Part shown: positions 11,189-39,499 of the stretch, one piece after another | How the letters are laid out: every line of letters starts with the position of its first letter | Numbering within the stretch: the stretch's first letter is position 1 | Origin: a virus | Lineage: Duplodnaviria > Heunggongvirae > Uroviricota > Caudoviricetes | Direction: 5' to 3' (one strand) | DNA length: 64,000 nt | IMG/VR virus record: IMGVR_UViG_3300008108_000013 | Notes under the pieces: generated by a model | What the model was told of the DNA's origin: nothing | Seen by the model: the letters and a program-made list of their open reading frames with translations, nothing else | Database searches by the model: none | Translations under genes and position numbers: made by a program

Positions 11189-11624
11189 AGAAAATAAAGA
11201 AAAACATAGATCAGTATTCTTCGACGGAGAAAATTATGTCAAGGTGTGGGGCAATACTACTCCGCAGTGGATATCAGAACATGTAAGTATTCTTAATGAG
11301 CTAGTTCCTAACTACGTAATCGAGTATGGCGGCAATTGGATAAAATTTAAAACCGTACAAGGAACACCTGCTAGCGAATTTGATCATACTGAGGAATTTA
11401 TTAACAGAGTCTATAATTTTTGTTTAGAACAAATTGAGAAAACATTGCCGTATGCACACGGTGATTGGGTGTTAAGCAACATAATTATAAAAGAAGATTC
11501 TATGTTTATGGTAGACTGGGATAATGTTGGAATTTACCCTAAAGAAGAAATATATAAAAAACTACACAATGATTTAAAAAGTGCCTTTGGAGAAAAATAC
11601 AAGTATGACACCACAGTCGTTTAG
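11163..11624 (+). CDS. mini kinase, APH/choline-kinase-like catalytic segment
   Basis: HGDWVLSNIII (HGDxxxxN catalytic loop) followed by VDWDNVG (DxD/IDWE-like motif). Only 153 aa. Confidence 0.4.
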   Translation: MQNFMVLIKENKEKHRSVFFDGENYVKVWGNTTPQWISEHVSILNELVPNYVIEYGGNWIKFKTVQGTPASEFDHTEEFINRVYNFCLEQIEKTLPYAHGDWVLSNIIIKEDSMFMVDWDNVGIYPKEEIYKKLHNDLKSAFGEKYKYDTTVV

Positions 11625-14844: not shown

Positions 14845-15503
14845 TAGTACACATTCATTCCGTGTTTAAGGATAATATCATGTGTACGTTGATTTAATTT
14901 AACTGTTAATATCATTGAATAGACACTATCAGTAAAACTAAACACAGAATGTTCTCTTTGGAAATTAGCAAAGTAAAAATAGCCAGGATCAAAGTACAAC
15001 GGTTTACCATCAAGTAACTGTACATAGTTCTCCGGCTTGCACTTTCCAAATGTCATTATAAGGCGTAGGTATTCTGGTGCAGGGCCTGGATAGTCTACGT
15101 GCGGCGGAAAGAACCCGCCAGCATCTAATTTTAAAAAATGTACACGACCGATATCTGGTCTAAAAATATCAACTACTTGCTGTATCTCAGGAAGTGCATG
15201 ATATACTTGTGTTGGCGTTGTGAAGTTATCATCTTTTAAATCAACATCATGATAATTTTGTAAGTAACCAAAACTGTTTAAGTGATAGTTATCCATGACA
15301 TCGCCTGTGTGGCTAGTTACAGGTAACCCCCACCTATTATTGTGCGTATCTTTTTTTAAGTTATAAGGGCACCAGTTATCTTTAAATTGTAAAAGGTCGT
15401 GCTCTAACTTCAATGGTTCGACACGAAGTTTTAATTTAAGGTACAGACCTAAGTTTGTTAGGCTGTGCCATAGCAACCCTCTTTCAATTTCTTCATTAGT
15501 CAT
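14844..15503 (-). CDS. cupin 2OG/Fe(II) oxygenase-like protein (divergent AspH-like)
   Basis: GRVHFLKLDAGGFFPPHVD ... FQREHSVFSF (HxD...H). Confidence 0.45.
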   Translation of the reverse strand: MTNEEIERGLLWHSLTNLGLYLKLKLRVEPLKLEHDLLQFKDNWCPYNLKKDTHNNRWGLPVTSHTGDVMDNYHLNSFGYLQNYHDVDLKDDNFTTPTQVYHALPEIQQVVDIFRPDIGRVHFLKLDAGGFFPPHVDYPGPAPEYLRLIMTFGKCKPENYVQLLDGKPLYFDPGYFYFANFQREHSVFSFTDSVYSMILTVKLNQRTHDIILKHGMNVY

Positions 15504-16795: not shown

Positions 16796-18104
16796 AAAGC
16801 TCTCCTAGTTCTGGAGTAACATCTAAAATGTTTTGATTGCGGCGCTGGTCGATAACTTTTGTAAATCTAACAAACTCAGGAATACGTTCTTGTGATAGAT
16901 CTTCCTGATCCATGAAGTTTAAAATTGATTTTAGTATAGAAACTGATGCAGACTTTACATTGTCATTTAGATCACTTTCTAAGAATTTGTTAATCCAGCT
17001 ATCGTAATGTAACTTTAATTTATTTCTTATAGACTCTGGATACATCCTAACACTAACACAATATGGTTTGTGTACAGGGTGTGTAGTTATAACAGGTCTT
17101 TTCTCTCTAGAATTAATTTTTTTAAATCCGCTATCAACTAATTTCCACCACATAAATTCCGGCAAGTGAAAAGCATTGTAGGCACTAACAGTGTATGTTA
17201 TATGGACCATAACGTTAGGATTTTGTTGACATATCTCATCTAGCTGTATTAAGTTCTTAAGGGTAGTATTCCATTTAATAGGATATCGTTGATACTCTTG
17301 CATAGACCCCATGCCGTCAACGCTGGCACCTATTCTAACTTGTTTAAACTGTGTCCAAAGTTCTAAAACTTTTTTCGGTAATGATGTGATATTTGTATTA
17401 TATTCTAGGATTATTTTTGAAGCTCGACCAGCGGCAATACACTTTTCTAAGAATAGAGTATGCCTATCTATAATTAAAGGCTCTCCGCCTGCCATGTAAA
17501 CGTGTTCAATATTATTAATTTGTTCTTCTATCTGCTGCCAAAAGAATTCTGACTCGTGCCAGTTGTAATCATCAGTGACAAACCTTCCTTTGTCGTTCCT
17601 TATCAAATGGACCCACCCGTGACTATCTAAGAACCCCTGCTTTTGATCATACGCAACCCAATCCTCATACCACGAGTGGCTGTCTGTTGGCCCGCACATA
17701 CGACAGGCAAGATTACAGGTGTTACCGAATCTTAAATCGTAATAGCGAGTATCTAAGTTTATACTCCCATCATCGTTTGTACTGTTTACTGCATCTTCGT
17801 AAGTAAAGTTCCACTGATCAATTTCGTTAAGACGTCTGCTAGACATACCAGATTCTTCTTCTTGCTGGCATCTTTTACATTCATCACTCCACACACCATT
17901 AATAATATTCTTCCGAATCTCTTTAATCATGATAGCATTTTTAGCATCAACTATAGAATCTTTACCTGCATTAAAGGGTGTTCCATCATCTTTTCTTGCA
18001 GTTCCTTGATTAGGAGTCACGTTGGCTTGGCAACAAACACGCATGTCGCCATTGTTGCGTACTGCTTGATGTATCCAAGGTAAAGGACAGAATGTTTTAG
18101 ACAT
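16788..18104 (-). CDS. radical SAM enzyme, family A (tandem paralog)
   Basis: MSKTFCPLPWIHQAVRNNGDMRVCC, DECKRCQQEE, GNTCNLACRMC, AGGEP and C-terminal QRRNQNILDVTPEL. Confidence 0.75.
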   Translation of the reverse strand: MSKTFCPLPWIHQAVRNNGDMRVCCQANVTPNQGTARKDDGTPFNAGKDSIVDAKNAIMIKEIRKNIINGVWSDECKRCQQEEESGMSSRRLNEIDQWNFTYEDAVNSTNDDGSINLDTRYYDLRFGNTCNLACRMCGPTDSHSWYEDWVAYDQKQGFLDSHGWVHLIRNDKGRFVTDDYNWHESEFFWQQIEEQINNIEHVYMAGGEPLIIDRHTLFLEKCIAAGRASKIILEYNTNITSLPKKVLELWTQFKQVRIGASVDGMGSMQEYQRYPIKWNTTLKNLIQLDEICQQNPNVMVHITYTVSAYNAFHLPEFMWWKLVDSGFKKINSREKRPVITTHPVHKPYCVSVRMYPESIRNKLKLHYDSWINKFLESDLNDNVKSASVSILKSILNFMDQEDLSQERIPEFVRFTKVIDQRRNQNILDVTPELGELFE

Positions 18105-18954
18105 TAAGTAGATACCTCATAAGAGAACTTATTCCCACTAGCTCTCCGCTTCTATCTATAGCTACATGGATAGCCTTAGTCTGAGTTAGATCGAAGTCCC
18201 TGCAGACTTTTTCATTCACGTCAGCATATTTTTTCCAAAAGTAATCTGGTTCAATATTGTTTAAGATATAAAGTGCAACGATTGTGGTCATTCGATTGCA
18301 CATATGAAAGTCATTCATTATGCTAATAGAGTCGGCTTTCTCTTCTTTAGTCCATCTTAAACCAATTCTATTCCAACCCAGTCCTAGACCTTTTGAAAGG
18401 CTGATGCCTAGTGATACAATAGCAGGATGATCAAAATTAAAATCAATTGTGCGGCTACATGTAATCCATGCTCCGTCGACATGCACAGGAATATTTTTTT
18501 TGGCACATTCATCTAAAATTCCATTCATGCCTGTATGAATATCAGCAGTACCTGGAAAAGGTAAAGAAATTATTAAAGGAATTCCGGGGATCAATGTGCC
18601 GGGTATAGATCTTGTAAAAGAATAACCTAATCTTTCGTGATACTTATAATCACCTTCAATTGTCTGTACGTACCCGGACATATATAAATTATCAATAAAC
18701 TGTGTACATCCGTTAATTATATCGACTCTGTTAAAGGTTTCAAGTCCTCTTATTTGATTCAAGGTCGACGCAGTTAACCAACTAATCATTTTATCTTTAA
18801 AAATATTATGTACGTTATCCGTGTGATCAGGCACCCAACCGTTATAACCAGTTAATGTTGAATTAAACAATGACTCAAGATGACTATCGCAAAAAGGTTT
18901 TAATCTACCTTTTTGTAAATAATCTTGAGAATATTCAGGTGCTATTCTTTCCAT
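18097..18954 (-). CDS. PLP-dependent aminotransferase-like protein (short)
   Basis: SLSKGLGLGWNRIG matches the SxSK...GxRxG PLP-lysine region of fold-type I aminotransferases. The protein is only 285 aa. Confidence 0.4.
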   Translation of the reverse strand: MERIAPEYSQDYLQKGRLKPFCDSHLESLFNSTLTGYNGWVPDHTDNVHNIFKDKMISWLTASTLNQIRGLETFNRVDIINGCTQFIDNLYMSGYVQTIEGDYKYHERLGYSFTRSIPGTLIPGIPLIISLPFPGTADIHTGMNGILDECAKKNIPVHVDGAWITCSRTIDFNFDHPAIVSLGISLSKGLGLGWNRIGLRWTKEEKADSISIMNDFHMCNRMTTIVALYILNNIEPDYFWKKYADVNEKVCRDFDLTQTKAIHVAIDRSGELVGISSLMRYLLNV

Positions 18955-20219
18955 TCTAACATCATCTCATAACACTTTGGAAATACTTCTTTCCAATTAA
19001 TATTTTGTAAACTAGACATCTTAAAGAAAAAGTCTTTAAGATCCTTTCGTCCTTGGATTATTTCATCAACGGTTATAGGCATTTTATTTGCGTACAATTC
19101 CCATTGGTTTAATTTAGAAAGTATCTCCGTATCTGTTGTTTTAGATCGTAGATAGACGAACATCCTATTTCTTTGATCCTCAGACAGTAATCCTATATTT
19201 AAATATTTAGGATTCATAACCGGATGACTTACTACACCAGCAAATGTATCTTTATTAATCTTTTTAAAATTCTTATTCTTTAACCAAAGCATCCAATCGA
19301 CTATGTTTTCTAAATTTAAAATCGAAACCGTAGTACTGGTAAAAACAGTAATATTAGCTGGCGTACTGTCAAGTATATCTAAATTCTTTTCTACAACTTT
19401 CCAAGGTGTTGGATATCGTATCGCATGGTTAACATCTGCTGTTCCGTCAACACTGGCACACAACTTAACTATTTTAAAATTTGAAAATAAATTAAAAATA
19501 TAATCGGGTAACACAGTTACATTAATACTATACTCTAATTCAATATCATTGGCAAATCCATTACTAATAAGTGCCTCTAATAAAGCAACGTGTTCTTTAA
19601 CTAGGAATGGTTCGCCGCCACCGAATTTAATCTTTTTAACAAACATCGAATGTTTAGCAACTAACTCGTAATACTCTTTTTGGTTGGCCCAATCAAATAC
19701 CTTTGTGTCGTCGATTGAATATGACACATCATCGATAGAAAAGATACGCTTACCTGTTACCTTTTCTTGTATCTTATACCATTGATTACTTTCTCCAGGA
19801 TAACACATAACACATTGTACGTTACACTTATTACCTAATCGAAGATCTAGGGATAAGATACGGTATTCAGATACTGTGCCGTCAGGGGCAGTGATTGCTC
19901 TAGCGTCTTCTTTGGTAAAATCATACATAGTCGATTCCCATTGATTCCGACTACGTTTACCTGCTTCGCTTTCGATACGACATCGTCTACATTGTTCGGG
20001 CCATTCATTGTTTAAAAATTTAGCACGAACTTCTTTCAACGTTTCGCAATTACTGATATCAAATTTTAAATCGTCAATAGTTAATATCTTTTCGTTCTGC
20101 GTTAACACAGTTTTCTTATTGCCGCCGCTTTGGCTGTGAGAGCATAGTCGCAGATGTCCATTACTTTTAACAGCAATATGACTCCACGGCAACGGACACC
20201 ATTTATCTAAATTGCTCAT
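18942..20219 (-). CDS. radical SAM enzyme, family A
   Basis: MSNLDKWCPLPWSHIAVKSNGHLRLCS, EQCRRCRIES, GNKCNVQCVMC and GGGEP. ATG 20219 is preferred because it matches paralogs; the track start is 20237. Confidence 0.7.
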   Translation of the reverse strand: MSNLDKWCPLPWSHIAVKSNGHLRLCSHSQSGGNKKTVLTQNEKILTIDDLKFDISNCETLKEVRAKFLNNEWPEQCRRCRIESEAGKRSRNQWESTMYDFTKEDARAITAPDGTVSEYRILSLDLRLGNKCNVQCVMCYPGESNQWYKIQEKVTGKRIFSIDDVSYSIDDTKVFDWANQKEYYELVAKHSMFVKKIKFGGGEPFLVKEHVALLEALISNGFANDIELEYSINVTVLPDYIFNLFSNFKIVKLCASVDGTADVNHAIRYPTPWKVVEKNLDILDSTPANITVFTSTTVSILNLENIVDWMLWLKNKNFKKINKDTFAGVVSHPVMNPKYLNIGLLSEDQRNRMFVYLRSKTTDTEILSKLNQWELYANKMPITVDEIIQGRKDLKDFFFKMSSLQNINWKEVFPKCYEMMLEWKE

Positions 20220-21168
20220 TAAACCTATCCACTTCACCGCACTGGCGACTACATTCTTTTAACGGACTATTCTCCCATGTACTTGCAATACTGTTAAAGT
20301 ATCCGCTATCAAAAATTTCTGCTAAACTGTTTTCATGTAAGTTAGGATACTTGCCTATCTTATCCATATAATCTATTCTGTTGGGATGGTTAGGATTAAA
20401 CCATTCGTTGTCTAGCCAACAACAAGGAACAACATTTCCTGTAGCACTAACATACAGACTCTTTTCATTGGCTACTTTACAGGTAATCGCTTTAGATTGT
20501 TCAGACACAACAATTTTCTTGCTTTTATCTGTTGGATACAGTATATGTAATGTACGACCTTCTTTATCTAATACTTGTAACTTGTCTTCTTTGAAACGTG
20601 CTGTGTTCTTTGCTACAAAATGTTTGAACCCCATGCGCTGGCTCAATTCTTTACAAATCTCTACTTGGTGTTTATTGTGTTCGAAAATTAACATATCCCA
20701 AGTTGCTGTTCCACCTTCTTTGATAAACAACTTAGCATTATCAAGAATCTTAACCCAGTCTGTGCCAATGCGGTATAAGGGGTGTGTATCAATAAGCCCG
20801 TCAATACCAAATCGAACATGTACATCTAACTTAGCAAGTCCCTTCCAAAAATTTTCACTCTTAGCGGAACCGTTAGTGTTCATGCTTAATTGTATGTCTG
20901 GATTTGCTGATCGCAAGTATTCAAAAATCTTTAATGTATCCTTAGCAATAATGGGGTCGCCTAAGTTACCACACATATATAACCTGTCTAACTGCTTTAT
21001 AATACCGTCGGGGAACCACTCTTTAAACTGTTCAAGTGTAATCTCGTCAATTGTAATAAAAGGATTTTCAATGCCGCCTTGAATGTTACGGGCACACATA
21101 GGACAACTAGCCTGACAACGACTGGTAACTTCTAAGTGAACTGTCCTAATATCCGTTAGTTTATACAT
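20203..21168 (-). CDS. radical SAM/SPASM-like enzyme (distinct type)
   Basis: TSRCQASCPMC (CxxxCxxC) at the N-terminus. C-terminal Cys-rich region TCKV...PCCWLDNEW...CSRQCGE. Confidence 0.7.
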   Translation of the reverse strand: MYKLTDIRTVHLEVTSRCQASCPMCARNIQGGIENPFITIDEITLEQFKEWFPDGIIKQLDRLYMCGNLGDPIIAKDTLKIFEYLRSANPDIQLSMNTNGSAKSENFWKGLAKLDVHVRFGIDGLIDTHPLYRIGTDWVKILDNAKLFIKEGGTATWDMLIFEHNKHQVEICKELSQRMGFKHFVAKNTARFKEDKLQVLDKEGRTLHILYPTDKSKKIVVSEQSKAITCKVANEKSLYVSATGNVVPCCWLDNEWFNPNHPNRIDYMDKIGKYPNLHENSLAEIFDSGYFNSIASTWENSPLKECSRQCGEVDRFNEQFR

Positions 21169-22168
21169 TCAACTTCCTTTTAGGAATCTTAACCTCTGTC
21201 GGGCAATTACAATATAACTGCTGACAGCGTGTAGTTGTGATTACATCAGGAGTAAACTTTGACTCAAACTCAGGGTCGTATATAGAAAATCTATTAACAC
21301 CACCAAACATATTTCTTGCACCACAGCTACCGCTAATAACACCATCTCGCTCTATAGCAAATCTATCTACGCCCAAGTTACAATCCCAGCCTGTAAAGTA
21401 ATGCCAACCATTTTGAATTACTTTAAAAGTATCAGCCGGTATCTCTTCTCCAGAATCCATAACTACACGCATGTCGGATTTAGAATCCTGGATCCTTCCG
21501 AGATCTCTTTGTTTCTGTATCCACTCTACAGGAGGAATTTTTTTCATCTTCTGTTCAGTATAGGCAATCTGTTCCGGAGTAAATCCTTTTATTTCACCGT
21601 CAGTAAATATAGGTTTAGTCTTTAACACCCACGGTGTAGGATGTGCCTTCATTTTCTCGGCTATCTCAACACAGCGATCCCAGTGTAAAGGATCCATTAA
21701 TACCTGTGCATTGATTAGCACATCAGTATTATAAAACACCCAATCCATTACTTCAATGATATGGTCGACATCCGCAAATTCATTATGTACACTAATACTA
21801 ATATCATCAAAGTACTTTGCATACTCCATCCAGAATCTCATAGTTCTTGATGCGTTAGTAACTATACTAATTTTACAGTCATGATTTTTACTAAAATATT
21901 CTGCAAATTCACCTAGCTCTGGCCATAGACTCGGCTCACCGCCGGTCAAGTTTATACGCACATTTTGTTTGCCAAGATGTTCTTTGTATATCTTTAACAT
22001 ATGGCTGAGATTCTTAGTGACCATATTAAAGTCTGTAGGGAATCGATACTTGCCATCATTACAGCCGTCGTAGCAATAATGACACTTATAGTTACACAAC
22101 GTTCCTATGATGTATTCGATTCTCAAGACACCGTCAAAGTCTTTATTTAAGATTGCTATCGGCTTCAT
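21161..22168 (-). CDS. radical SAM/SPASM-like enzyme, family B
   Basis: GTLCNYKCHYC, LTGGEPSLW, HNEFADVDH and a C-terminal CNLG..SGSCGARN..RCQQLYCNCP. Confidence 0.7.
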   Translation of the reverse strand: MKPIAILNKDFDGVLRIEYIIGTLCNYKCHYCYDGCNDGKYRFPTDFNMVTKNLSHMLKIYKEHLGKQNVRINLTGGEPSLWPELGEFAEYFSKNHDCKISIVTNASRTMRFWMEYAKYFDDISISVHNEFADVDHIIEVMDWVFYNTDVLINAQVLMDPLHWDRCVEIAEKMKAHPTPWVLKTKPIFTDGEIKGFTPEQIAYTEQKMKKIPPVEWIQKQRDLGRIQDSKSDMRVVMDSGEEIPADTFKVIQNGWHYFTGWDCNLGVDRFAIERDGVISGSCGARNMFGGVNRFSIYDPEFESKFTPDVITTTRCQQLYCNCPTEVKIPKRKLNV

Positions 22169-22758
22169 TTCTTACCTATTATCATAAAACGTTTATATAA
22201 CGGTAGATCCAATTCGCCGGAATATAAAATTTGTTCTAGTCCTGATTGCTGTTTAAATTCTTCTAAATCTCGAGCAATACGAACATGTTCCGGAATACTG
22301 TAATTGTTACTCTGTAACACAATTAAACTATCGTGTGGAAGCCCCGATAGCCACAGATCATATTCGTCTTGTGTAATGTGTTCGCAACTAGTGTTAATAA
22401 CAACATCTGCATCACTTCTAATATTACACATATCGGCTGTGATTGCTCTAAACTTACCTTTTTCTAATTCGATCTGATTCATATTATGAGCGATTTCTTC
22501 GCACTCAGGATCGATATCAATACTACGAATATAGTGACAAGGCACATTACTTTGAAATAACATACTCGCTAGTGTTCCAACCCAACCGCCGTGAATATCC
22601 ACACTAACGCTAGAATGTACTAATTCGTCTAAATTATCTATTAACCATTCTTTACTTAATATTTGGCCGCGCCAAAACGCATCCATAGTACGAATAGGAT
22701 CTTTACTGTTTCGTATGGCTCTCATCCAATGATGTAAATGTTCTGTGTCTATTTGCAT
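22165..22758 (-). CDS. hypothetical protein, possibly class I SAM-dependent methyltransferase
   Basis: VDIHGGWVGT (motif I-like Gly-rich loop) and DADVVINTS. Weak. Confidence 0.3.
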   Translation of the reverse strand: MQIDTEHLHHWMRAIRNSKDPIRTMDAFWRGQILSKEWLIDNLDELVHSSVSVDIHGGWVGTLASMLFQSNVPCHYIRSIDIDPECEEIAHNMNQIELEKGKFRAITADMCNIRSDADVVINTSCEHITQDEYDLWLSGLPHDSLIVLQSNNYSIPEHVRIARDLEEFKQQSGLEQILYSGELDLPLYKRFMIIGKK

Positions 22759-23723
22759 TTTGGTATTTTACTATCCGCTGAACTTACGCAACTAGGTGTA
22801 ATACAGCTTTGAGGTTGTTTAAATAATTCAAAGTTATCTAGTGTTCCTAAAGATTGGTCGTGACAACTGTAACTTCTCTTGACCTCAGTTCCCCTAATTA
22901 TAACACTCTGGTATCCTGAATTGCAAGTCCAATTATTAAATTTATTAAAACCAAAAGAATTAAATCTTTCAGCTTGATCGAATAGGTATTCTGTCCCAGA
23001 GTTATCATAAAGAGCAATCTGATAAACATCTTCTCCATTTGACGACTGAGGAAATCCTTCTCTCATTAAATGTAGCATTTCCTCAGTATAACCATCAACA
23101 ATCGCAGTAGCATCTAAAGTACTCTGCGGTTTTAAGGTAACACTTATTCCTCTTTTATGTAGGCGTTCCATGCGTTCATATAATGTATAAAATTGATCTG
23201 GAACCATAACTTGATTAACTGTAAGCAAAACATTTTCATACATTAATTGTAAACACTTGTCTCCGAATTCTTGTTCTTTGGCAAACTCTGCATGGTAGCT
23301 GGCAGTGATACTTCTGCGCTGTAGTGTAGATGTAACACTGGCCCAGTTCTTCCACCAATTAGTTCCAGGACTCAAATTTGTAGTCATGTGAATACTTTGG
23401 TAAGGACTTTCTAAATCTTTTTCTACATGTTTTGTTAGATCTAAAAGGTGTTTATAAGCAGTAGGTTCTCCGCCACTAAAACTCCAATGAAATTCTGTAA
23501 ATCCGTTACGTCTTGCTTGGCGCTTTATCTCATCAACTGTTTGTTTGTAAACATCTAACGGTTGGAAGTCAAGTCGATCACTTCTTGCATAGGGCCAACA
23601 GTACGAACAGTTATAATTACAAAAACGACCTAGTATCCAGCTAACCGAAAACAGAGGTCGATTTAACATTGTTCTTTGTCCAAAACGGACTATTTTTTCG
23701 AATGGAATGGTAGAAAATAGCAT
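22749..23723 (-). CDS. radical SAM/SPASM-like enzyme, family B
   Basis: GRFCNYNCSYCWP, FSGGEPTAY and a C-terminal Cys cluster (CNSG..SCHD..SCITPSC..KCK). Confidence 0.7.
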   Translation of the reverse strand: MLFSTIPFEKIVRFGQRTMLNRPLFSVSWILGRFCNYNCSYCWPYARSDRLDFQPLDVYKQTVDEIKRQARRNGFTEFHWSFSGGEPTAYKHLLDLTKHVEKDLESPYQSIHMTTNLSPGTNWWKNWASVTSTLQRRSITASYHAEFAKEQEFGDKCLQLMYENVLLTVNQVMVPDQFYTLYERMERLHKRGISVTLKPQSTLDATAIVDGYTEEMLHLMREGFPQSSNGEDVYQIALYDNSGTEYLFDQAERFNSFGFNKFNNWTCNSGYQSVIIRGTEVKRSYSCHDQSLGTLDNFELFKQPQSCITPSCVSSADSKIPKCK

Positions 23724-29557: not shown

Positions 29558-30003
29558 AGATTGGACTTAGCTATAGCCGTTGCGTTCGTGACATTGTAGA
29601 AGGCAAAGTTGATATCAATGATGTTTTGGTTATTGTTGCTCGAACCGACTTCGATCCACGAGATGACATGCAATGGCAGGGTATTTGGCAGGGCTACGGT
29701 GGTGGCAGTGACGGCAATATGATGCGTGGCTTCTTTGGTGGTAGTCATCCAGAGTGGGCCGGATATACCGACGTAGACGAAGATCGTTTTCGTAGTGTTA
29801 GTATTGAACTTTGGGAATCTGGAAAATTTCACCAGCCTCGTAAATTTGGCTCACACCCACGCAGACTTCCTCATATTTGGTTAGAAACAGTTCTTCCTAG
29901 CGAAGAGCTAGACAAGAATCCAGGAATCAAAGCCGCTTGGAATAAATTCCAGACATTGGCTAGCCTGTCTAGTGTAAACCTAAATGAAGATCACAGCGTG
30001 TGA
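29554..30003 (+). CDS. hypothetical protein
   Basis: ORF only. Confidence 0.45.
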   Translation: MKIGLSYSRCVRDIVEGKVDINDVLVIVARTDFDPRDDMQWQGIWQGYGGGSDGNMMRGFFGGSHPEWAGYTDVDEDRFRSVSIELWESGKFHQPRKFGSHPRRLPHIWLETVLPSEELDKNPGIKAAWNKFQTLASLSSVNLNEDHSV

Positions 30004-30530
30004 AGACTCTACCTTTAATTCTAACTTTTTTGGCTTTTCCTGTATTAGCAGATAACTGCCGTATGCAGGAAACCAGCCAAATGACCAGCCAGCGTAAAGT
30101 CGGCGAAGTTATAAATTTGGTTAAAAATAAAAGTCATAATCGTTGCGAAGTCAAGTATCAAATAGATGTTGATGGCAAGAAACATTTGGTTTCGTGGGTA
30201 CAAACTGGCTTGTATCAGGAAGAAATACTGTGCCAAATGGCAATCCAAAATGGCACTAACGATCTATTAGTCCGATTGCCCGGAGTCTACCAAACCGAAA
30301 CCATTATCAAGTGTAAAGAAAAAACTTATCCAAAATCGATCACCAAGGGGTATGAAGGTGAAGAAATAGAATTTGGTACACACCCACAAGCACCTGGATA
30401 TCGTAGAATTGGTACAGCGTCTAACTGTAGATTCTTTATTGGTTGGACTGCAAACGGCTATTCCGAAAGAACCCAAGGCGTCATCTGCGAAAATAAAAAC
30501 AATCTTTGGACAGTTGTGGACAAGTTCTGA
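30000..30530 (+). CDS. secreted protein (signal peptide)
   Basis: MKTLPLILTFLAFPVLA signal peptide. Confidence 0.5.
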   Translation: MKTLPLILTFLAFPVLADNCRMQETSQMTSQRKVGEVINLVKNKSHNRCEVKYQIDVDGKKHLVSWVQTGLYQEEILCQMAIQNGTNDLLVRLPGVYQTETIIKCKEKTYPKSITKGYEGEEIEFGTHPQAPGYRRIGTASNCRFFIGWTANGYSERTQGVICENKNNLWTVVDKF

Positions 30531-30531
30531 C

Positions 30532-30560
30532 TTGACCTTTTTCTCTAATTGTGATATAAT
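30532..30560 (+). promoter_or_regulatory. sigma70 promoter TTGACC-17-TATAAT
   Basis: -35 at 30532-30537 and -10 at 30555-30560, upstream of the small membrane-protein operon. Confidence 0.6.
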
Positions 30561-30591
30561 AACAATATCGTAATTCGATAGAGAGGCATTT

Positions 30592-30720
30592 ATGAAGGCA
30601 TTTATTTTAGGCACTATCTTTGGTTTGGTACTAGCTACTGTTGGTTTCAGCGGTATCGCTCGTATTCTTGACCGAGGAGTTGATACAGTTAAAACACACT
30701 CACAGGAGATGGCAAAATGA
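30592..30720 (+). CDS. small membrane protein (42 aa)
   Basis: Not in the track. MKAFILGTIFGLVLATVGFSGIARIL is a single transmembrane helix. Confidence 0.4.
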   Translation: MKAFILGTIFGLVLATVGFSGIARILDRGVDTVKTHSQEMAK

Positions 30721-30851
30721 AAGTAGTATTCTCATTTATCATTGTCGGTATGCTGACAGCATGTAGTACTTCCGCTGGATTAGTTAAAGGTCTAGGAGAA
30801 GATATCAAAGCTGGTACCGACTGGACAGCTTCTAAAATCAAATCTAACTAA
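30717..30851 (+). CDS. entericidin-like small lipoprotein
   Basis: Not in the track. MKVVFSFIIVGMLTACSTSAGLVKGLGEDIKAG has a lipobox LTAC followed by a GxGEDI motif, as in EcnA/EcnB. ATGA overlap with the previous ORF. Confidence 0.55.
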   Translation: MKVVFSFIIVGMLTACSTSAGLVKGLGEDIKAGTDWTASKIKSN

Positions 30852-30861
30852 GGACAAAAAA

Positions 30862-31425
30862 ATGAAAAAGACTCTACTACTTCTACCTCTTGTAGCAGTT
30901 ATGACTGCCTGCGGCACTACTGATCCTTATGGGAAACGTGCTGACATGGAACGTGAACGTCAAGAACGCTATGTAGAACGTTCAATCGACAAGGCACCTA
31001 AGTGGATGTTTGAATTGCCTAACAGTACCAGTGCAGTTTACGAAAACGGTACTGCGGTTAGTGGTGATTGGATGATGGCTGATGCTAAAGCCAAAGCAAC
31101 CGCTTATGGCAAACTTTGTATGCTAGCCGGTGGTACTGCTAGTCAGCAGACTAAAATCTACCGTACAGATTCCGAAGCAACGTCAACTGAACTCAGTGAA
31201 CAGGCAATTAAAACTTCATGCAAGGCTGTTGACCTGACGGGTGCTGAAGTTGCCAAAGACGGAATTAAAGTTGTCCAAGAGGGCAATCGATATCGTGTAT
31301 ATGTACTAGTAGCTTTGCCTACCGGCGATGCTAACATCCTACGCAAATACAAAGATGCTCAACGTCAACGAGAAATTGCCGCACAGCGAGCACCAGAAGC
31401 ATTTAAAGAAATGGAACGTCAATGA
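30862..31425 (+). CDS. lipoprotein
   Basis: Signal peptide with lipobox VMTAC. Confidence 0.55.
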   Translation: MKKTLLLLPLVAVMTACGTTDPYGKRADMERERQERYVERSIDKAPKWMFELPNSTSAVYENGTAVSGDWMMADAKAKATAYGKLCMLAGGTASQQTKIYRTDSEATSTELSEQAIKTSCKAVDLTGAEVAKDGIKVVQEGNRYRVYVLVALPTGDANILRKYKDAQRQREIAAQRAPEAFKEMERQ

Positions 31426-31598
31426 TTAAAATTATTCTAGCATTTCTCATAGCCTTTGGTATTTGCTATTTTGGTATTAAAGGCTATAGAGATCTAACCG
31501 GCAAGGACAAATGGGCATTGACAAAACTTGTAGGATACAGTATATTCTGTAGTGTTTTAGCAATCGCTGTACTGATTGCTATTGTTATTATTTTTTAA
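31422..31598 (+). CDS. small two-TM membrane protein (58 aa)
   Basis: Not in the track. ATGA overlap with the previous gene. Two hydrophobic helices. Confidence 0.4.
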   Translation: MIKIILAFLIAFGICYFGIKGYRDLTGKDKWALTKLVGYSIFCSVLAIAVLIAIVIIF

Positions 31599-31607
31599 GG
31601 ACTTAAA

Positions 31608-32405
31608 ATGAAACGTATTTTCACTCTCTCTATTCTCGCCGCCGCAGTTCTTGCTACTGGCTGTACTCGTATCGAAACCGGTGAGGTTGGTGTACGGGTC
31701 GGTTTTGACAAACAGGTTAAACCTGGTGAACTGCTACCTGGCTCATTCAATCAAACTATCATCGGCGATGTCTTGACGTTCCCAGTCAAAGACGTTAACG
31801 TTATTCTTGAGAACATGACCCCCGTTGCTAAAGATAACAGCACCATGAAAGACTTGGATGCTGTGGTTGTTTACAACATCAATCCGCAGAGCGTAGCTGA
31901 ACTCTACAGCACCAAGAACAAGGCATTCCACGCCGAGTTCAAAGGCGACACTTATGTGATGTATAATTATGTTGTACAGAATGCTCGTAACGCTATCTAC
32001 AAAGCGGCTCGTAAGTACGAAGCATTGGACATGGCAGACAATCGTGAACCGATGGAGAAGTTTATTCAGGAAGAAATTACTCGCAATCTTGCTGAAGAAA
32101 AACTAGACGGCACTATCATGATCAGCCAAGTGTTGATCCGTAATGTTGTACCAGCAGATAGTGTCGTAGAATCAGCTAACGCTCTTGTTCGTGCTAAGAA
32201 CGAATACAAGCAGAAGGAAGTTGAAGTTCAAACAGCTAAGAAAGAAGCAGAACGTATGGCCGCGTTGGCTAATAACTCTGCTAGTTCGATCGCATTTATG
32301 AATGCACAGGCCGCATTGAATATTTCGGAAGGTATCAAGAATGGTAAGGTACAGACTATTGTTGTACCGGCTAACTTCAATGCTTTGATGTTGCCTAAAC
32401 AGTAA
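31608..32405 (+). CDS. SPFH (band-7/prohibitin/HflKC-like) domain lipoprotein
   Basis: Lipobox LATGC. SPFH-like core followed by a C-terminal coiled-coil KEVEVQTAKKEAERMAAL. Confidence 0.7.
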   Translation: MKRIFTLSILAAAVLATGCTRIETGEVGVRVGFDKQVKPGELLPGSFNQTIIGDVLTFPVKDVNVILENMTPVAKDNSTMKDLDAVVVYNINPQSVAELYSTKNKAFHAEFKGDTYVMYNYVVQNARNAIYKAARKYEALDMADNREPMEKFIQEEITRNLAEEKLDGTIMISQVLIRNVVPADSVVESANALVRAKNEYKQKEVEVQTAKKEAERMAALANNSASSIAFMNAQAALNISEGIKNGKVQTIVVPANFNALMLPKQ

Positions 32406-32944
32406 TGAAACTGTTCGGACGCACAGGCGGCTACTACCTATTCTGGACAGGCTTTGTCTACTTCTGGATAGGTATGTACCTTGCTTTCACACATGCCGCC
32501 CTCCCAGAAATTGCTACAGCATTATGGATTTGTGTTTTAGCTCTACCTTTCGTAATTCCTCCGATTGGTAGATATTTTAACTTAGATGTGAGATGGGATA
32601 TGAACTTTTTAAGTTTTTTAGGATTTGGAAAAATGGTCAAAGACGGTGCAGATGTTTTAGAGTTTCCTAAGCCAAAAGCAGTTCCTCCGATGCCAGAAGT
32701 GCAACCTCCTGCTCCAAAAGAAGAACCTGCTAAAGTTTTTTATCGCCTTGGACTAACTGATAACAATCGAGTTGCGTTTCATATGGGCTATAGTGAAATT
32801 ACCATGAACAAAGATGGCTGTCAACAAATGATTGATCAGATTGCTTTCTTCCAAAGTCAATTATACGACGAAGGTGGTCCAAGTGACGACCCAGATGGAG
32901 GATTGCCGGTGCCAGAAGAAGTTGAAAATAAAAAGGCGGCGTAA
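32405..32944 (+). CDS. membrane protein with Pro-rich linker (possible SPFH partner)
   Basis: Two TM helices, a PPMPEVQPPAPKEEP linker and ATGA coupling to the SPFH gene. Confidence 0.45.
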   Translation: MKLFGRTGGYYLFWTGFVYFWIGMYLAFTHAALPEIATALWICVLALPFVIPPIGRYFNLDVRWDMNFLSFLGFGKMVKDGADVLEFPKPKAVPPMPEVQPPAPKEEPAKVFYRLGLTDNNRVAFHMGYSEITMNKDGCQQMIDQIAFFQSQLYDEGGPSDDPDGGLPVPEEVENKKAA

Positions 32945-33132
32945 TGAGTGGACGTGGAATTATAATGCAAGAACCCGATACTGTTTGCGAACTGTGCGGG
33001 AAAATTGATGAGTGTAGGCCTTATGGCGCAAACGATGAACAAATCTGTTTTGATTGTGCTATGGCTACACCCGAATCACAGGCCATTGCTGAAAAGAAAA
33101 TGGCTAGATATATTTTTGGAGAAGAAGAATAA
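32944..33132 (+). CDS. small zinc-ribbon protein
   Basis: CELCGK...CFDC. Confidence 0.35.
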   Translation: MSGRGIIMQEPDTVCELCGKIDECRPYGANDEQICFDCAMATPESQAIAEKKMARYIFGEEE

Positions 33133-33752
33133 TGCCTCGTTTAGTACCTACTATTATTGAAAAAGAAGCACACGGCGAACGTGCCTATGACATTTACAGT
33201 CGATTACTCAAGGATCGTATTGTTATGCTAGATTCAGATGTTGATGAACACATGTCTAGCCTAATTGTAGCACAACTACTATTTTTGGAAAGCCAAGGTA
33301 ATGAAGATATTAACTTCTTCATTAATAGCCCGGGCGGTAGTGTAACAGCAGGATTGGCTATCTATGATACCATGCAGTTTATCAAACCAGACATCGCAAC
33401 CTATGTTGTAGGTCAAGCCGCAAGTATGGGCTCATTTTTGTCCCAAGCAGGCACTCCAGGTAAAAGGTTTGTCTTGCCCGAAAGCCGGACAATGATCCAT
33501 CGTGTTAGTTCAGGTACTCCGGGTACCCGTGGTAGTGTTCATGTACAAGAGCTACAGTTTGAAGATGCTGTACGGGCTATGGAAGAGTCAAAAAGACTGA
33601 ATAAACGACTAACCGAACTATATGTTAAGCACAATACTAAGGGTAAAACCTACGAAGAACTGTTCGATACTATGAAATTTGACACATTTTTAAGTGCCGA
33701 AGAAGCAGTAAACTACGGTTTAGCGGACAAAGTTATAACTCAACGTCCTTGA
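33132..33752 (+). CDS. clpP: ATP-dependent Clp protease proteolytic subunit ClpP
   Basis: ERAYDIYSRLLKDRIVML N-terminus, GQAASMGS (catalytic Ser) and MIHRV (His). Full-length cellular-type ClpP. Confidence 0.85.
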   Translation: MPRLVPTIIEKEAHGERAYDIYSRLLKDRIVMLDSDVDEHMSSLIVAQLLFLESQGNEDINFFINSPGGSVTAGLAIYDTMQFIKPDIATYVVGQAASMGSFLSQAGTPGKRFVLPESRTMIHRVSSGTPGTRGSVHVQELQFEDAVRAMEESKRLNKRLTELYVKHNTKGKTYEELFDTMKFDTFLSAEEAVNYGLADKVITQRP

Positions 33753-33809: not shown

Positions 33810-34385
33810 GTGAAAAAACTAGAGGATTTTTCCGCTTCAGATCGTATTGATGTAAAATTACTCGAAAATCATACGCATTTCCTAGTAGGCGAAATTGACG
33901 AAAATAATGTCAACGAATGTATCAAATGGATAACCTACGAAAGTTTTGATACTAAAGAAAAAACGATAACTCTGTACATTAATTCAACAGGTGGTGATCT
34001 TTACCAAGCATTTGCCCTTATTGATGTGATGCAGAACAGTCATCATCCTATACGTGTTATAGGTATCGGTGCTGTGATGAGTGCGGCATTTTTAATATTT
34101 GCTAGCGGAACTAAGGGCGAAAGATTTGCCGCTCCAAACACTAGTTTTATGTGTCATCAGTTTTCGGCAGGCGTTGAAGCCAAATATCACGATATCAAAG
34201 CCGAAATGAAAGAAAATGAATCTCTTAACACTAAGATGGTTCAAATTCTAAAAGAAGCCACAGGACTAGCACCTTCCAAAATTAAGTCTAAACTACTTCC
34301 AGCCAGCGATGTTTATCTAACAGCCGACGAAGTTGTAGAATTGGGTGTTGCAGATTACGTCCTCGGTGTTGAAGACGAAGAATAA
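33810..34385 (+). CDS. ClpP paralog (second proteolytic subunit)
   Basis: Aligns with ClpP. GAVMSAAF has Ser in the catalytic position and MCHQF has His. GTG start. Divergent from the first copy. Confidence 0.65.
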   Translation: MKKLEDFSASDRIDVKLLENHTHFLVGEIDENNVNECIKWITYESFDTKEKTITLYINSTGGDLYQAFALIDVMQNSHHPIRVIGIGAVMSAAFLIFASGTKGERFAAPNTSFMCHQFSAGVEAKYHDIKAEMKENESLNTKMVQILKEATGLAPSKIKSKLLPASDVYLTADEVVELGVADYVLGVEDEE

Positions 34386-36372: not shown

Positions 36373-37062
36373 ATGTTTGGATCTAGTTACACAGGCGGTG
36401 CAGTTTACCGTTCAGCAAGTGATATTAATGGTGCAATGGGTCGAGTTTACGGACACATGGGACTTGCAGTTATCACATCAATGATTGTTAGTTTTTTAGT
36501 AGGCAATAATACTACACTCATGCAGTTCTTTTTTACCGGGGCAATGAAGTGGGTTGTAATTTTTGCACCGCTGGTGGCTATTCTAGCTGTTAGCTTCGCA
36601 ATGGATAAGTTTAGTAAATCTGCATTACAACTATTTTTACATGGATTTGCCGCACTAATGGGATTGAGTTTTGCTACAATTTTTGTAGTCTATAACATGG
36701 GCAGTATTGTAAGTGCATTTATGAGTGCCGCAGTTTTATTTGGCGTCATGAGTTTTTATGGTTACTTTACTAAAAAGAATCTAGACAGTGTTGGCCAATT
36801 TATGTTTATTGGTTTGATTGCTATCATTATTGCTAGTATCATCAATATCTTCATTGGTAGTACTGTAATGCAAATGGTAATTTCAGCTATTGCTGTTATT
36901 ATTTTCCTAGGATTGACTGCCTACGACACACAAAAGATTCGTGAAATGGTCAGTTATGACAATGACGGTAAGGCCGAGGTAATGGGTGCATTGACACTAT
37001 ATCTCGACTTCATTAATCTGTTCTTAAACTTGCTACAACTGTTCGGCGGACGTAAGGATTAA
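36373..37062 (+). CDS. Bax inhibitor-1 / YccA family membrane protein
   Basis: Seven hydrophobic segments. The N-terminal GAVYRSA..MGRVYGHMGLAV is typical of BI-1/YccA. Confidence 0.7.
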   Translation: MFGSSYTGGAVYRSASDINGAMGRVYGHMGLAVITSMIVSFLVGNNTTLMQFFFTGAMKWVVIFAPLVAILAVSFAMDKFSKSALQLFLHGFAALMGLSFATIFVVYNMGSIVSAFMSAAVLFGVMSFYGYFTKKNLDSVGQFMFIGLIAIIIASIINIFIGSTVMQMVISAIAVIIFLGLTAYDTQKIREMVSYDNDGKAEVMGALTLYLDFINLFLNLLQLFGGRKD

Positions 37063-38119: not shown

Positions 38120-39499
38120 ATGGATAATAAAATCGTTTGGTTAAAACAAATAAAAAAGGACCTAGACAAAGTCGGGCCAGGCATGTGTCTAGCAAAATGG
38201 GTTCAAACAACATTACACCTTCATAACGGACACACTCATAGCTGTCACCATCCCGACACACACAAAGTTCCTTTAGAAGAGATTGCTGTAAATCCAAGTG
38301 CGTTACATAATACCAATTTCAAAAAAGAGCAGAGAAAATTAATGATGACTGGACAACGTCCAGCAGAGTGTCACTATTGCTGGAATGTTGAGGATAATGT
38401 TCCTCCGGGCGTTGATGATGTCTTTAGCGATAGGGTTTATAAAAGTGCCAACTCTAAATGGGCAGGCCCAAAACATTATGCTGAAGTTCTTAACATCGGC
38501 TGGCAGGGTGATATTAATCCGACATATCTCGAAGTAAGTTTTAGTTACGCTTGTAATTTTAAGTGCTCATATTGCAGTCCGCAGATTAGTTCAAAATGGA
38601 TGGAAGAAATTAAAGAGTATGGCGAATATCCGACTACGCTGAGATACAACGGTTTAGATCATATCAACTACCAAAACAAAATGCCTATCCCGGAAAGAGA
38701 AGATAATCCATATACAGATGCATTCTGGAAGTGGTGGCCCGAAATATATAACACCCTTCACACGTTTAGAATTACCGGCGGCGAACCGTTAATGACTAAA
38801 CATACTTTTCGTACATTAGATTACGTTATTGAAAATCCTAATCCTGAACTAGAACTTGCGATTAATTCTAACCTATGTGTTCCTGATAAATTATTTGATG
38901 AGTTTATAGAAAAAGTTAAAATTATTACAGAAAATAAACTAGTCAAGCAATTTACACTCTATACAAGTTGCGAAGCTACTGGAAAAAAAGCAGAATACAT
39001 TCGTCACGGATTAGATTATAACAAGTGGATCTCTAATTGTAATCGTTATCTAAAAGAAATTCCTGCCGGTAATTTTAGTATTATGTCAACATACAACGCT
39101 CTTTCAATAACTTCGTATATGGAGTTTTTAAAAGATGTTCTTATTCTTAAATTAAAATATGCAAATAAAGAATTACACAGGACAATTAATATAGACATAC
39201 CGTACTTAGATAATCCTAAATGGATGAGCGTTAGAATCTTGCCAACATCTTACATATCTTTAATACAAGAACAGGTTCAATATATGAAAGACAATCATTG
39301 CGATGGCAAAGGTTTTCAACACTGGGAAGTTGAAAAGCTAGATAGGATACAGTATCTTATCAAAGAAGATCCAGAACAATCCTGGCTTAAAGATTTTTAT
39401 ATGTTTTTTAACGAACACGATCGAAGAAGAAATACGGATTTTAAAAATACGTTCCCTGAATTAATTGATTTTTATCACGCATGTCAACAAATAAAATAA
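38120..39499 (+). CDS. radical SAM enzyme, family A (distant fifth copy)
   Basis: MCLAKW...NGHTHSCHHP, AECHYCWNVE, YACNFKCSYCSP, TGGEP and C-terminal DRRRNTDFKNTFPEL. Confidence 0.7.
   Translation: MDNKIVWLKQIKKDLDKVGPGMCLAKWVQTTLHLHNGHTHSCHHPDTHKVPLEEIAVNPSALHNTNFKKEQRKLMMTGQRPAECHYCWNVEDNVPPGVDDVFSDRVYKSANSKWAGPKHYAEVLNIGWQGDINPTYLEVSFSYACNFKCSYCSPQISSKWMEEIKEYGEYPTTLRYNGLDHINYQNKMPIPEREDNPYTDAFWKWWPEIYNTLHTFRITGGEPLMTKHTFRTLDYVIENPNPELELAINSNLCVPDKLFDEFIEKVKIITENKLVKQFTLYTSCEATGKKAEYIRHGLDYNKWISNCNRYLKEIPAGNFSIMSTYNALSITSYMEFLKDVLILKLKYANKELHRTINIDIPYLDNPKWMSVRILPTSYISLIQEQVQYMKDNHCDGKGFQHWEVEKLDRIQYLIKEDPEQSWLKDFYMFFNEHDRRRNTDFKNTFPELIDFYHACQQIK

Follow-up and report, generated by a model that had tools for sequence, protein, structure and literature searches.

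Two separately inherited cassettes of predicted envelope proteins, one pairing a membrane hairpin with an SPFH lipoprotein, in an uncultured tailed phage

Introduction

To our knowledge, SPFH proteins occur ubiquitously as membrane scaffolds, their functions in bacteria are debated, and all the well-studied ones are anchored by a transmembrane (TM) helix or a hairpin. Here we analyse an SPFH gene carried by a stretch of 64,000 nucleotides (nt) of the Caudoviricetes record IMGVR_UViG_3300008108_000013 in IMG/VR, a stretch that we call the window. Its product, spfh265, is a predicted lipoprotein encoded directly downstream of a 58-residue membrane hairpin, tm58, and this gene pair adjoins a second group of genes comprising the membrane peptide tm42, the entericidin-like lipoprotein lipo44 and the larger lipoprotein lipo187. 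An earlier note on this DNA, made from the sequence alone, had read the whole interval as a single membrane module. We find instead two independently inherited cassettes of exported envelope proteins, which are juxtaposed by the chance of this window.

Several described systems resemble parts of the locus. SPFH proteins form large rings or cages, and NfeD partners have been proposed to promote their oligomerisation (PMC13086221). In the SPFH–NfeD pairs QmcA–YbbJ of Escherichia coli, FloA–NfeD of Staphylococcus aureus and PH1511–PH1510 of Pyrococcus, the SPFH gene adjoins, and shares a transcript with, a gene for a small multi-TM partner, as the spfh265 gene adjoins tm58. The SPFH proteins of these pairs are TM-anchored and cytoplasmic, whereas the phage protein is predicted to be lipid-anchored and periplasmic. 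Unlike NfeD, tm58 is a mere 58-residue hairpin with no OB-fold, and the promoter of the SPFH gene lies inside the open reading frame (ORF) of the partner. The tm58–SPFH pairing is moreover phage-specific, as the cellular members of the same SPFH subfamily have no such partner. The HflK/HflC–FtsH system of E. coli places its SPFH domains on the periplasmic side, as predicted for spfh265; HflK and HflC are nevertheless a TM-anchored heterodimer, whereas spfh265 is a single protein with a lipobox that matches neither an HflK/C equivalog nor a solved HflK/C chain.

Phages themselves encode related proteins. Using tblastn, we found SPFH lipoproteins 27–46% identical to spfh265 in 190 phage records. 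Like the window protein, they belong to phrog_200, are mostly lipoproteins and often have a small two-TM ORF upstream; the clade of the window differs from them by a hairpin fixed at 58 residues and by the embedded promoter. Mass spectrometry has revealed SPFH lipoproteins of phages in infected cells or virion preparations, with a function described as "poorly understood" (PMC10892097, PMC7760394), and an HflK/C-like protein of a Pasteurella prophage, which can be likened to spfh265 by its description only, has been found in outer-membrane vesicles (PMC9872710).

The second group of genes recalls two further families. Like EcnA and EcnB of E. coli, lipo44 is a lipoprotein of the 38–48-residue class with a signal peptide, a lipobox cysteine and a shared motif. 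EcnA and EcnB, however, form a tandem toxin/antidote pair, whereas lipo44 is a single gene beside tm42 and an LPP20-like lipoprotein, is borne by a phage and is preceded by a sigma70 consensus promoter. The LPP20 family, with Helicobacter pylori Lpp20 (HP1456), HP1454 and Tip-alpha and an entry from Campylobacter phage CP8, comprises lipoproteins with a beta-alpha-beta core such as the one predicted for lipo187; unlike them, lipo187 has no PF02169 match and possesses long terminal helices and two invariant cysteines.

Results

Two cassettes with separate inheritance

The seven ORFs that the earlier note had placed on the + strand of the interval are all present there. Cassette A (30532-31425) consists of the sigma70-type promoter P1 (30532-30560) followed by tm42 (30592-30720), lipo44 (30717-30851) and lipo187 (30862-31425). 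Cassette B (31422-32405) consists of tm58 (31422-31598) and spfh265 (31608-32405), with a second sigma70-type promoter, P2 (31518-31546), within the tm58 coding sequence. The promoter that the note had seen as driving three small ORFs directly precedes tm42 and lipo44, but the third of these, the 58-residue ORF, comes after lipo187.

We compared the window with 215 related viral loci, retrieved as pattern-matched relatives with at most 80 per set: 80 loci around relatives of the SPFH gene, 54 around relatives of lipo44 and 80 around relatives of the BI-1/YccA-family gene discussed below. Window proteins were located in these loci by tblastn. Ratios of nonsynonymous to synonymous substitution (dN/dS) were derived from related phage contigs, in which synonymous sites are saturated (median dS 1.2-1.9).

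Cassette A is a lineage-conserved unit in a stable backbone. Among the 54 lipo44 loci, tm42 was found in 52, and in 43 of these at an offset of exactly -125 nt, that is, as a 42-codon ORF with an ATGA overlap. The lipo187 gene was likewise present in 52 loci, at an offset of +107 to +145 in all but one. The surroundings of the unit also recur, with orf149 in 45, sec176 in 35 and ClpP in 40 of the 54 loci. The ClpP gene comes after lipo187 in those 40 loci whether SPFH is present or not, and the ClpP paralogues are backbone genes that normally lie 3' of cassette A.

Cassette B is a pair that travels separately. At the 81 SPFH loci, tm58 is located directly upstream of the SPFH gene (at about 186 or 272 nt) in 75, whereas lipo44, lipo187 and sec176 were detected in only 3 and tm42 in 10. 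The flanks of the SPFH gene vary widely among these loci and include ligase, ribonucleotide reductase and many unrelated ORFs. Conversely, the tm58–SPFH pair is inserted in only 14 of the 54 lipo44 loci, each time between lipo187 and ClpP. Its scarcity there and the varied neighbourhoods of SPFH elsewhere show that the interval holds two units, and the proposal of a single module has to be abandoned.

The gene that follows the pair, pro179 (32405-32944, +), encodes a membrane protein in which a Pro-rich linker joins a hydrophobic N-terminal region to a small C-terminal domain, and belongs to no Pfam, PHROG or NCBIfam family. It had been taken for the membrane partner of the SPFH protein. We rejected this assignment, as pro179 matches occur in only about 10 of the 81 SPFH loci, often without the TM part, and the conserved partner is tm58. 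Matches to pro179 were also found in 26 of the 54 lipo44 loci, at a variable distance and often lacking the TM part. Two other arrangements were considered and discarded. SPFH and ClpP do not represent a split "long NfeD", as ClpP follows cassette A regardless of SPFH and the first ClpP paralogue is full-length and canonical, and a moron completed by a terminator 3' of SPFH was ruled out since a terminator occurs in only 8 of 62 loci. In four loci (L014, L023, L044 and L048), an ORF of 53-61 residues that starts with MLWTLILFAH or MWALIIAL and contains two cysteines directly follows the SPFH stop codon; it is absent from the window.

The genes are tightly packed and probably coupled in translation. 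The earlier description of all junctions as ATGA overlaps holds for two of them (tm42/lipo44 and lipo187/tm58), but the junctions spfh265/pro179, pro179/zn62 and zn62/clpP1 are TAATG overlaps, the orf149/sec176 junction is a GTGA overlap, and lipo187 and spfh265 are each preceded by a gap of 9-10 nt that contains an AAGGA ribosome-binding site.

A lipid-anchored SPFH subfamily shared with Bdellovibrionota

The SPFH assignment of spfh265 is secure. Its match to PF01145 (Band_7) spans profile positions 2-176 of 176 and scores 67.6 bits where the cutoff is 23.6 (E 1.8e-18), in agreement with the profile result anticipated in the earlier note, and phrog_200, named "lipoprotein", matches with an E value of 2.4e-31. 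Beyond the SPFH domain (residues 21-214), the chain continues with a helical region and, towards the C-terminus, the strand motif TIVVP. The protein carries a predicted lipoprotein signal peptide instead of an N-terminal TM anchor: the lipobox ATGC, with Cys19 and Thr at +2, is invariant as A-T-G-C. As proposed previously for lipo44, lipo187 and spfh265, all three lipoboxes satisfy a PROSITE PS51257-type rule (Cys at 15-35, Lys or Arg within the first seven residues), which is a prediction from sequence. The lipobox cysteine is invariant in family alignments A3 and A4, and in A2 except for member P0020, which has Asp at -1.

The family forms a compact group. We counted 5650 close relatives, many of which have been named "HflC" automatically by the Joint Genome Institute (JGI), and an exhaustive phmmer search of 1.84 billion representatives returned only 350 clusters at E<=1e-3, with lengths of about 255-290 residues. 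A lipobox is present in 81 of the 126 representatives stored and a plain TM anchor in about 7-9, and most of the others are N-terminally truncated fragments. Asp never occupies position +2 among the family representatives. In 45 of the 80 members of full length, a hydrophobic strand followed by Pro occurs some 16 residues before the C-terminus, as compared with 0.05 occurrences per 40 residues elsewhere. We take this h-h-h-P motif to resemble the "STIVFPLPI" oligomerisation segment of stomatin, and treat the resemblance as a lead and not as a test.

No NCBIfam model matched spfh265 at E<=1, the HflK and HflC equivalogs included, and sequence and profile searches of the Protein Data Bank (PDB) returned only unrelated chains at E<=10 and no solved SPFH protein. 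The dN/dS of spfh265 is 0.068, an exceptionally low value. As synonymous sites are saturated, this value indicates that the identity of SPFH proteins across genomic contexts reflects constraint and not recent transfer.

The closest cellular homologues, with 57-72% identity, are chromosomal genes of six complete Bdellovibrio genomes and of Bacteriovorax/Bacteriovoracaceae metagenome-assembled genomes (MAGs), and further homologues lie on single MAG contigs of Comamonadaceae, Leptospiraceae, Spirochaetota and Noviherbaspirillum. The Bdellovibrionota proteins (loci L085, L087-L090 and L092; L086 and L093-L095) are 63-70% identical to spfh265 and share the mature N-terminus C-TRIETGEVG. These cellular genes stand alone among ordinary, varying neighbours, with no FtsH context. 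A prophage origin of the Bdellovibrio genes was ruled out, as their chromosomal neighbourhoods are ordinary and differ between species. Our searches found no literature on the Bdellovibrionota homologues. In the Comamonadaceae MAG contig L084 (3938-4738), the cellular homologue closest to spfh265, 72% identical, has lost the lipobox cysteine (…LLIAMAFVFITRIETGEVG) and appears from its sequence to use an uncleaved TM anchor, like a few other members of the family.

A membrane hairpin with an embedded promoter

The tm58 protein is a predicted two-helix membrane hairpin of 58 residues, without insertions or deletions in 59 unique sequences; TM segments were called here and elsewhere with a simple hydropathy script. 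The conserved loop between the helices is net positive, with 3.9 Lys or Arg residues against 1.5 Asp or Glu residues, which predicts a cytoplasmic loop and places both termini at the periplasmic face. Its dN/dS is 0.37. No match to PF01957 (the NfeD OB-fold) and no Pfam match beyond noise was detected.

A small two-TM ORF precedes the SPFH gene directly in six of the eight phage lineages examined. It encodes 58 residues in BUCT-ZZ01, as in the clade of the window, 90 in an Acinetobacter T4-like phage, 85 in an N4-like phage, 92 in phiAB441 and 53 in Synechococcus phage S-CREM1, and no such ORF was found upstream of SPFH in AM24 or Kuttervirus SJ3. It is likewise absent beside the cellular SPFH homologues in the neighbourhoods that we examined. 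Judged by this conservation, tm58 is a predicted phage-specific upstream partner of the SPFH gene.

The hairpin ORF contains the sequence TTGACA-17-TATATT, which matches the sigma70 consensus at 11 of 12 positions. This site, P2, lies 90 nt before the ATG of the SPFH gene and is not mentioned in the earlier note. Codons L33-T34 of tm58 form its -35 hexamer, and the -10 hexamer extends over S40-I41-F42. Scored at the corresponding position, 32 of the 59 unique homologues (54%) reach at least 11, eight of them perfectly, and 36 reach at least 10. When the same proteins were back-translated with the codon usage of the family, only 1.4% reached 11 and 8.3% reached 10; several of the natural low scorers have a shifted site instead. 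Since the excess over this synonymous-codon null occurs where synonymous sites are otherwise saturated, it indicates that selection probably keeps a sigma70 promoter for the SPFH gene inside the upstream ORF. A promoter of its own 5' of tm58 was ruled out, as only 4 of 59 unique upstream regions score at least 11, and none of these 59 regions contains the T4-type late motif TATAAATA.

Cassette A and its promoter

P1 occupies the 61-nt gap 5' of tm42 and reads TTGACC-17-TATAAT with an extended -10 TG. The promoter reported earlier at 30532 is therefore real, but it matches the consensus at 11 of 12 positions and is not perfect. Matches of at least 11 of 12 positions to TTGACA-17-TATAAT were found in 33 of 37 unique regions upstream of tm42, 58-67 nt before the ATG, as compared with 3% of 100-nt windows drawn at random from these loci; in these relatives the hexamers are conserved and the spacers vary. 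These data support the general idea, already put forward for this locus, of an envelope-directed set of proteins expressed from a host-type promoter. The whole window contains nine sites of at least 11 of 12 where about 3.4 are expected. Its perfect TTGACA-16/17-TATAAT sites number four, all on the + strand (71, 34389, 40165 and 43321), and the three that were compared with the ORF map (34389, 40165 and 43321) fall in intergenic gaps. Judged by these sites, the phage evidently makes heavy use of the host sigma70 RNA polymerase for many operons of this block.

In many of the loci L099-L152, the leader between the -10 hexamer and the tm42 start follows approximately ~ACATGTTCAACA(A/C)ACA(T/C)AGA(A/G)GGCA, and the leader 3' of P1 in the window differs from it (AACAATATCGTAATTCGATAGAGAGGCA). 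The conserved leader could be an operator or an RNA element.

The three proteins of the cassette evolve under similar constraint, with dN/dS values of 0.24 for tm42, 0.25 for lipo44 and 0.24 for lipo187. The earlier note had named a lack of conservation of its small ORFs in related phages as evidence that would count against it; tm42, lipo44 and tm58 are all found in related contigs, with dN/dS 0.24-0.37. The 42-residue membrane peptide tm42 is predicted to span the membrane once, by its N-terminal TM helix, has a polar tail of 20 residues and matches no Pfam, PHROG or NCBIfam family.

The 44-residue lipo44 has the lipobox LTAC, with Cys16 and Ser at +2, and the sequence GLGEDI at residues 25-30; its family comprises 167 metagenomic proteins of 38-45 residues. 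The window copy alone nearly fails the entericidin profile check that had been suggested for it, as it shows no PF08085 match at E<=1 and only a weak NCBIfam EcnB match (E 0.005; 16.5 bits where the cutoff is 94). Relative to the 38-residue form it carries a four-residue insertion, SAGL, after the lipobox, which explains how it escapes detection on its own. At the level of the family, the entericidin likeness stands: of 39 aligned members, 33 match PF08085 (best E 6e-4) and 37 match EcnB (best E 3.5e-8), with all EcnB scores below the curated NCBIfam cutoffs. Comparison of the family profile by hhalign gave a probability of 96.7% with EcnB, and of 92.6% and 88.4% with the mature peptides of EcnB and EcnA alone. 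Using the EcnA and EcnB sequences read from E. coli K-12 as references, we identified a motif common to the family and to both mature entericidins, C-[NS]-T-x-x-G-x-G-[EK]-D-I. In the K-12 annotation EcnB is a bacteriolytic lipoprotein and EcnA its antidote. Each of the 54 lipo44 loci holds one entericidin-like gene, with tm42 and lipo187 as neighbours and no tandem toxin/antidote pair. We classify lipo44, by its predicted sequence features, as entericidin-like and not as an EcnA/B orthologue; it may nevertheless act as a toxin or an antidote. A tblastn search of GenBank phages with the entericidin-like consensus returned no match.

The third protein, lipo187 (lipobox MTAC, Cys17, Gly at +2), has 811 homologues, all unannotated. 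Sequence searches found no match in Pfam, PHROG or NCBIfam, and none to PF02169 (LPP20) at E<=1. An AlphaFold2 (AF2) model built from a 57-sequence alignment has a mean predicted local distance difference test (pLDDT) score of 75.8 and shows a beta-alpha-beta4 core flanked by N- and C-terminal helices; two cysteines of the protein are invariant. A BFVD search returned phage entries named "LPP20 lipoprotein", and a Foldseek search of the PDB gave nothing significant. The sole match of the lipo187 profile in the PDB, PilA (E 0.023), was judged spurious. On this model, lipo187 is a predicted LPP20-fold lipoprotein with additional terminal helices.

Methylophilales phage Melnitz is the only cultured phage found to encode a lipo187 homologue (31% identity). 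Its locus (MZ577097, 2620-4681) encodes, in this order, a 40-residue lipoprotein, a 210-residue lipoprotein that resembles sec176 and holds its position, a 45-residue tm42-like ORF, the lipo187 homologue and a SleB-like cell-wall hydrolase, which has a hydrophobic N-terminus; there is no entericidin-like gene. The arrangement is a hint at the host range (Methylophilales).

A BI-1 homologue common in the clade

The gene at 36373-37062 (+) encodes a BI-1/YccA-family membrane protein. Its Bax1-I domain is full-length (PF01027, 181.6 bits against a cutoff of 34.1, E 2.2e-53), in line with the profile match expected for it. Scored against the YccA equivalog it reaches 27.8 bits where the cutoff is 353 (E 1.9e-06), and it is not a YccA equivalog. 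Homologues are present in at least 596 IMG/VR viral loci, and only eight GenBank phage records contain one, all fragmentary and unannotated. The BI-1 gene is thus common in this clade of uncultured phages and essentially unknown in cultured ones.

Among the 57 BI-1 loci with at least 5 kilobases (kb) of upstream sequence, the usual neighbours are ClpP (26), ligase (23) and a downstream 274-residue ORF (28), and SPFH occurs in 6 and cassette A in 10-11. Viewed from the other side, BI-1 lies within 5-7 kb of SPFH in 4 of the 58 SPFH loci with enough downstream sequence. These low counts provide no syntenic support for an SPFH–BI-1 system, and BI-1 is not linked by synteny to cassette A or to cassette B.

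Flanking genes and other features of the window

Upstream of P1, sec176 (30000-30530, +) has a GTG start and a Sec signal peptide, MKTLPLILTFLAFPVLA, followed by DN; it contains six cysteines and no lipobox and is predicted to be a secreted periplasmic protein, as had been proposed. It has no Pfam, PHROG or NCBIfam family and a dN/dS of 0.47, and is a backbone gene 5' of cassette A, with a homologue upstream of tm42 in 35 of the 54 lipo44 loci.

Downstream of pro179 and in one operon with it, zn62 (32944-33132, +) encodes a 62-residue zinc-ribbon-like cytoplasmic protein with a CxxC...CxxC pattern (phrog_18256, E 1.9e-07), which is not an envelope protein. It is followed by the first ClpP paralogue (33132-33752, +; PF00574, E 4e-61), and by a second, divergent one (33810-34385, +; PF00574, E 2.4e-36); the tandem may possibly form a phage-encoded heteromeric ClpP. 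An ATP-dependent DNA ligase and a MazG-like protein are encoded between the ClpP paralogues and BI-1. Both cassettes are flanked in the window by DNA-metabolism and ClpP genes, and no endolysin gene adjoins them. A megablast search of GenBank phages with the region returned no match, and PADLOC models gave none at E<=0.1 for any of nine proteins.

Elsewhere in the window, a large block on the - strand (5374-23723) includes a Trp-halogenase-like flavoenzyme (5374-6561; PF04820, E 3e-86), beside which the ORF at 6558-7733 may be a second copy, and at least three radical-SAM/SPASM enzymes (15500-16795, 16788-18104 and 18942-20237). Another radical-SAM protein is encoded on the + strand at 38120-39499. 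The halogenase/radical-SAM block has the appearance of a cluster for biosynthesis or modification carried by the phage. The + strand also contains one giant ORF, of 4087 residues, at 47906-60169.

Discussion

The explanation that we favour overall, tentatively and by analogy with described proteins, is that both cassettes are directed at the host envelope, which they would remodel or stabilise with SPFH as a scaffold. Soon after infection, the host RNA polymerase would transcribe cassettes A and B, and the Sec, Lgt, Lsp and Lnt machinery would export and lipidate lipo44, lipo187 and spfh265. As none of the three has Asp at +2, the +2 rule predicts their sorting to the inner leaflet of the outer membrane. 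Like other SPFH proteins, spfh265 would oligomerise at the periplasmic side and so form a scaffold in the shape of a ring or cage, and the tm58 hairpin may act as its minimal membrane partner, as NfeD does for cellular SPFH proteins. Together with the lipoproteins of cassette A, SPFH would remodel or stabilise the envelope during infection; the exclusion of superinfecting phages might be a by-product or an alternative.

Several observations weigh against this explanation. The +2 sorting rule is enterobacterial and may not be that of the host. With a cytoplasmic loop and almost nothing on the periplasmic side, tm58 is hard to picture in contact with an SPFH protein at the outer membrane, and it has no NfeD OB domain. 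The AF2 monomer of spfh265, predicted from a shallow alignment of 23 sequences, reached a pLDDT of only 47.6 and was not used for fold searches, so that oligomerisation is argued only by family analogy and from the sequence motif. The promoter statistics come from related, non-independent sequences, and the conservation of tm58 at LTK and YSI coincides with the promoter hexamers and may reflect constraint on the DNA. In Melnitz, the lipo187 homologue adjoins a cell-wall hydrolase, a hint of lysis.

A role in lysis or its timing would make the small TM proteins holin- or antiholin-like and the lipoproteins spanin- or EcnB-like, with SPFH restraining them until the appropriate time. The juxtaposition of small TM proteins and small lipoproteins does recall a holin/spanin layout, the annotations of EcnB as bacteriolytic and EcnA as antidote would fit, and so would the order in Melnitz, where a tm42-like ORF and the lipo187 homologue lead into the SleB-like hydrolase. 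Melnitz, however, lacks the entericidin-like gene, and no endolysin was found beside the cassettes in the window or in the 54 lipo44 and 81 SPFH loci, where ClpP, ligase and DNA-metabolism genes form the flanks. The promoters follow the host sigma70 consensus, and the late motif TATAAATA is missing from all 59 regions upstream of tm58. Spanins of the Rz/Rz1 type combine an i-spanin, which has an N-terminal TM helix and a long periplasmic coiled coil, with a small o-spanin lipoprotein and are encoded beside holin and endolysin genes, whereas tm42 has about 20 residues after its TM helix, too short a tail for an i-spanin, and no adjacent endolysin; lipo187 is predicted to be globular, with an LPP20 fold. 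We therefore regard a function in lysis as quite unlikely. Superinfection exclusion strikes us as rather unlikely. Here, a receptor or a DNA-entry route would be masked or inactivated by early lipoproteins and membrane peptides, with the result that infection by later phages fails and cell debris does not deplete the progeny. The T5 Llp and Cor lipoproteins, which act on FhuA, and Imm and Sp of T4 are early envelope proteins that serve as the comparison. In favour of exclusion, a strong, conserved host-type promoter implies early expression, the absence of Asp at +2 predicts an outer-membrane location for the three lipoproteins, and both cassettes show the mosaic distribution of accessory genes. 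In Kuttervirus SJ3, the gene that precedes the one for the SPFH lipoprotein is even annotated "superinfection exclusion", but that annotation is unverified and the SJ3 protein is soluble and unrelated to tm58. None of the window proteins resembles a known exclusion protein in Pfam, PHROG, NCBIfam or PADLOC, and the dN/dS of 0.07 of SPFH, together with its close homologues in bacterial chromosomes, is atypical of fast-evolving receptor-masking proteins.

The mechanism suggested originally, in which SPFH acts like HflK/C and BI-1 like YccA and the two reprogramme the host FtsH protease as one system, is in our assessment very unlikely. It has in its favour that HflK/C cages enclose FtsH (PMC12048511, PMC13086221), that an SPFH domain is present, with a predicted periplasmic location matching the HflK/C topology, and that many SPFH homologues bear the automatic JGI name "HflC". 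The BI-1 membership is confirmed, with the weak YccA equivalog match noted above, and the two genes lie 4 kb apart in the same genome. BI-1 and SPFH are nevertheless neighbours in just 4 of the 58 SPFH loci and 6 of the 57 BI-1 loci, which implies that they are inherited independently. Neither an HflK/HflC NCBIfam match at E<=1 nor a solved HflK/C chain detectable by sequence or profile links spfh265 to these proteins, its predicted anchor is a lipid and not a TM helix, the YccA score falls far below its cutoff, and the closest cellular SPFH homologues are lone genes without FtsH context. The observation in the earlier note was largely right, and its interpretation is partly supported.

The favoured explanation, envelope-directed cassettes with SPFH as a scaffold, can be extended to a bolder proposal, which we consider unlikely as a joint statement. 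The hairpin–SPFH cassette would give rise to a kind of SPFH assembly not described before, namely a ring or cage attached by lipid to the periplasmic side of the envelope, perhaps at the outer membrane. A phage-specific inner-membrane hairpin of 58 residues would take the place of NfeD in nucleating or positioning it, and the codons of that hairpin would contain the promoter for its autonomous expression. The assembly would derive from a lipoprotein family that is otherwise chromosomal in the periplasm-invading predators Bdellovibrio and Bacteriovorax, and unrelated phages (T4-like, N4-like and jumbo) would share it as a portable device that corrals or protects components of the host envelope, cassette A with its entericidin-like peptide being a second, separate set of envelope effectors.

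All the components described here fall into known families, and SPFH lipoproteins of phages had been annotated before. New are the phage-specific pairing of hairpin and SPFH, in which the hairpin ORF contains a promoter, the delineation of a compact SPFH subfamily with predicted lipid anchors that is common to phages and Bdellovibrionota, the three-gene cassette with entericidin-like and LPP20-like members in phages, and the abundance of BI-1 in this uncultured clade.

If our reading is true, a compact and strongly constrained subfamily of lipid-anchored, periplasmic SPFH proteins would offer a tractable new model for SPFH biology. This subfamily, which phages of several families combine with a minimal hairpin partner and a self-contained promoter, is also a candidate for a general phage tool to manage the host envelope, and P2 would neatly illustrate how one stretch of DNA can encode a protein and a regulatory signal at once. 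The trio of tm42, the entericidin-like peptide and the LPP20-like lipoprotein would extend the entericidin family into phages and may provide a defined three-gene set for approaching the unclear activity of entericidins.

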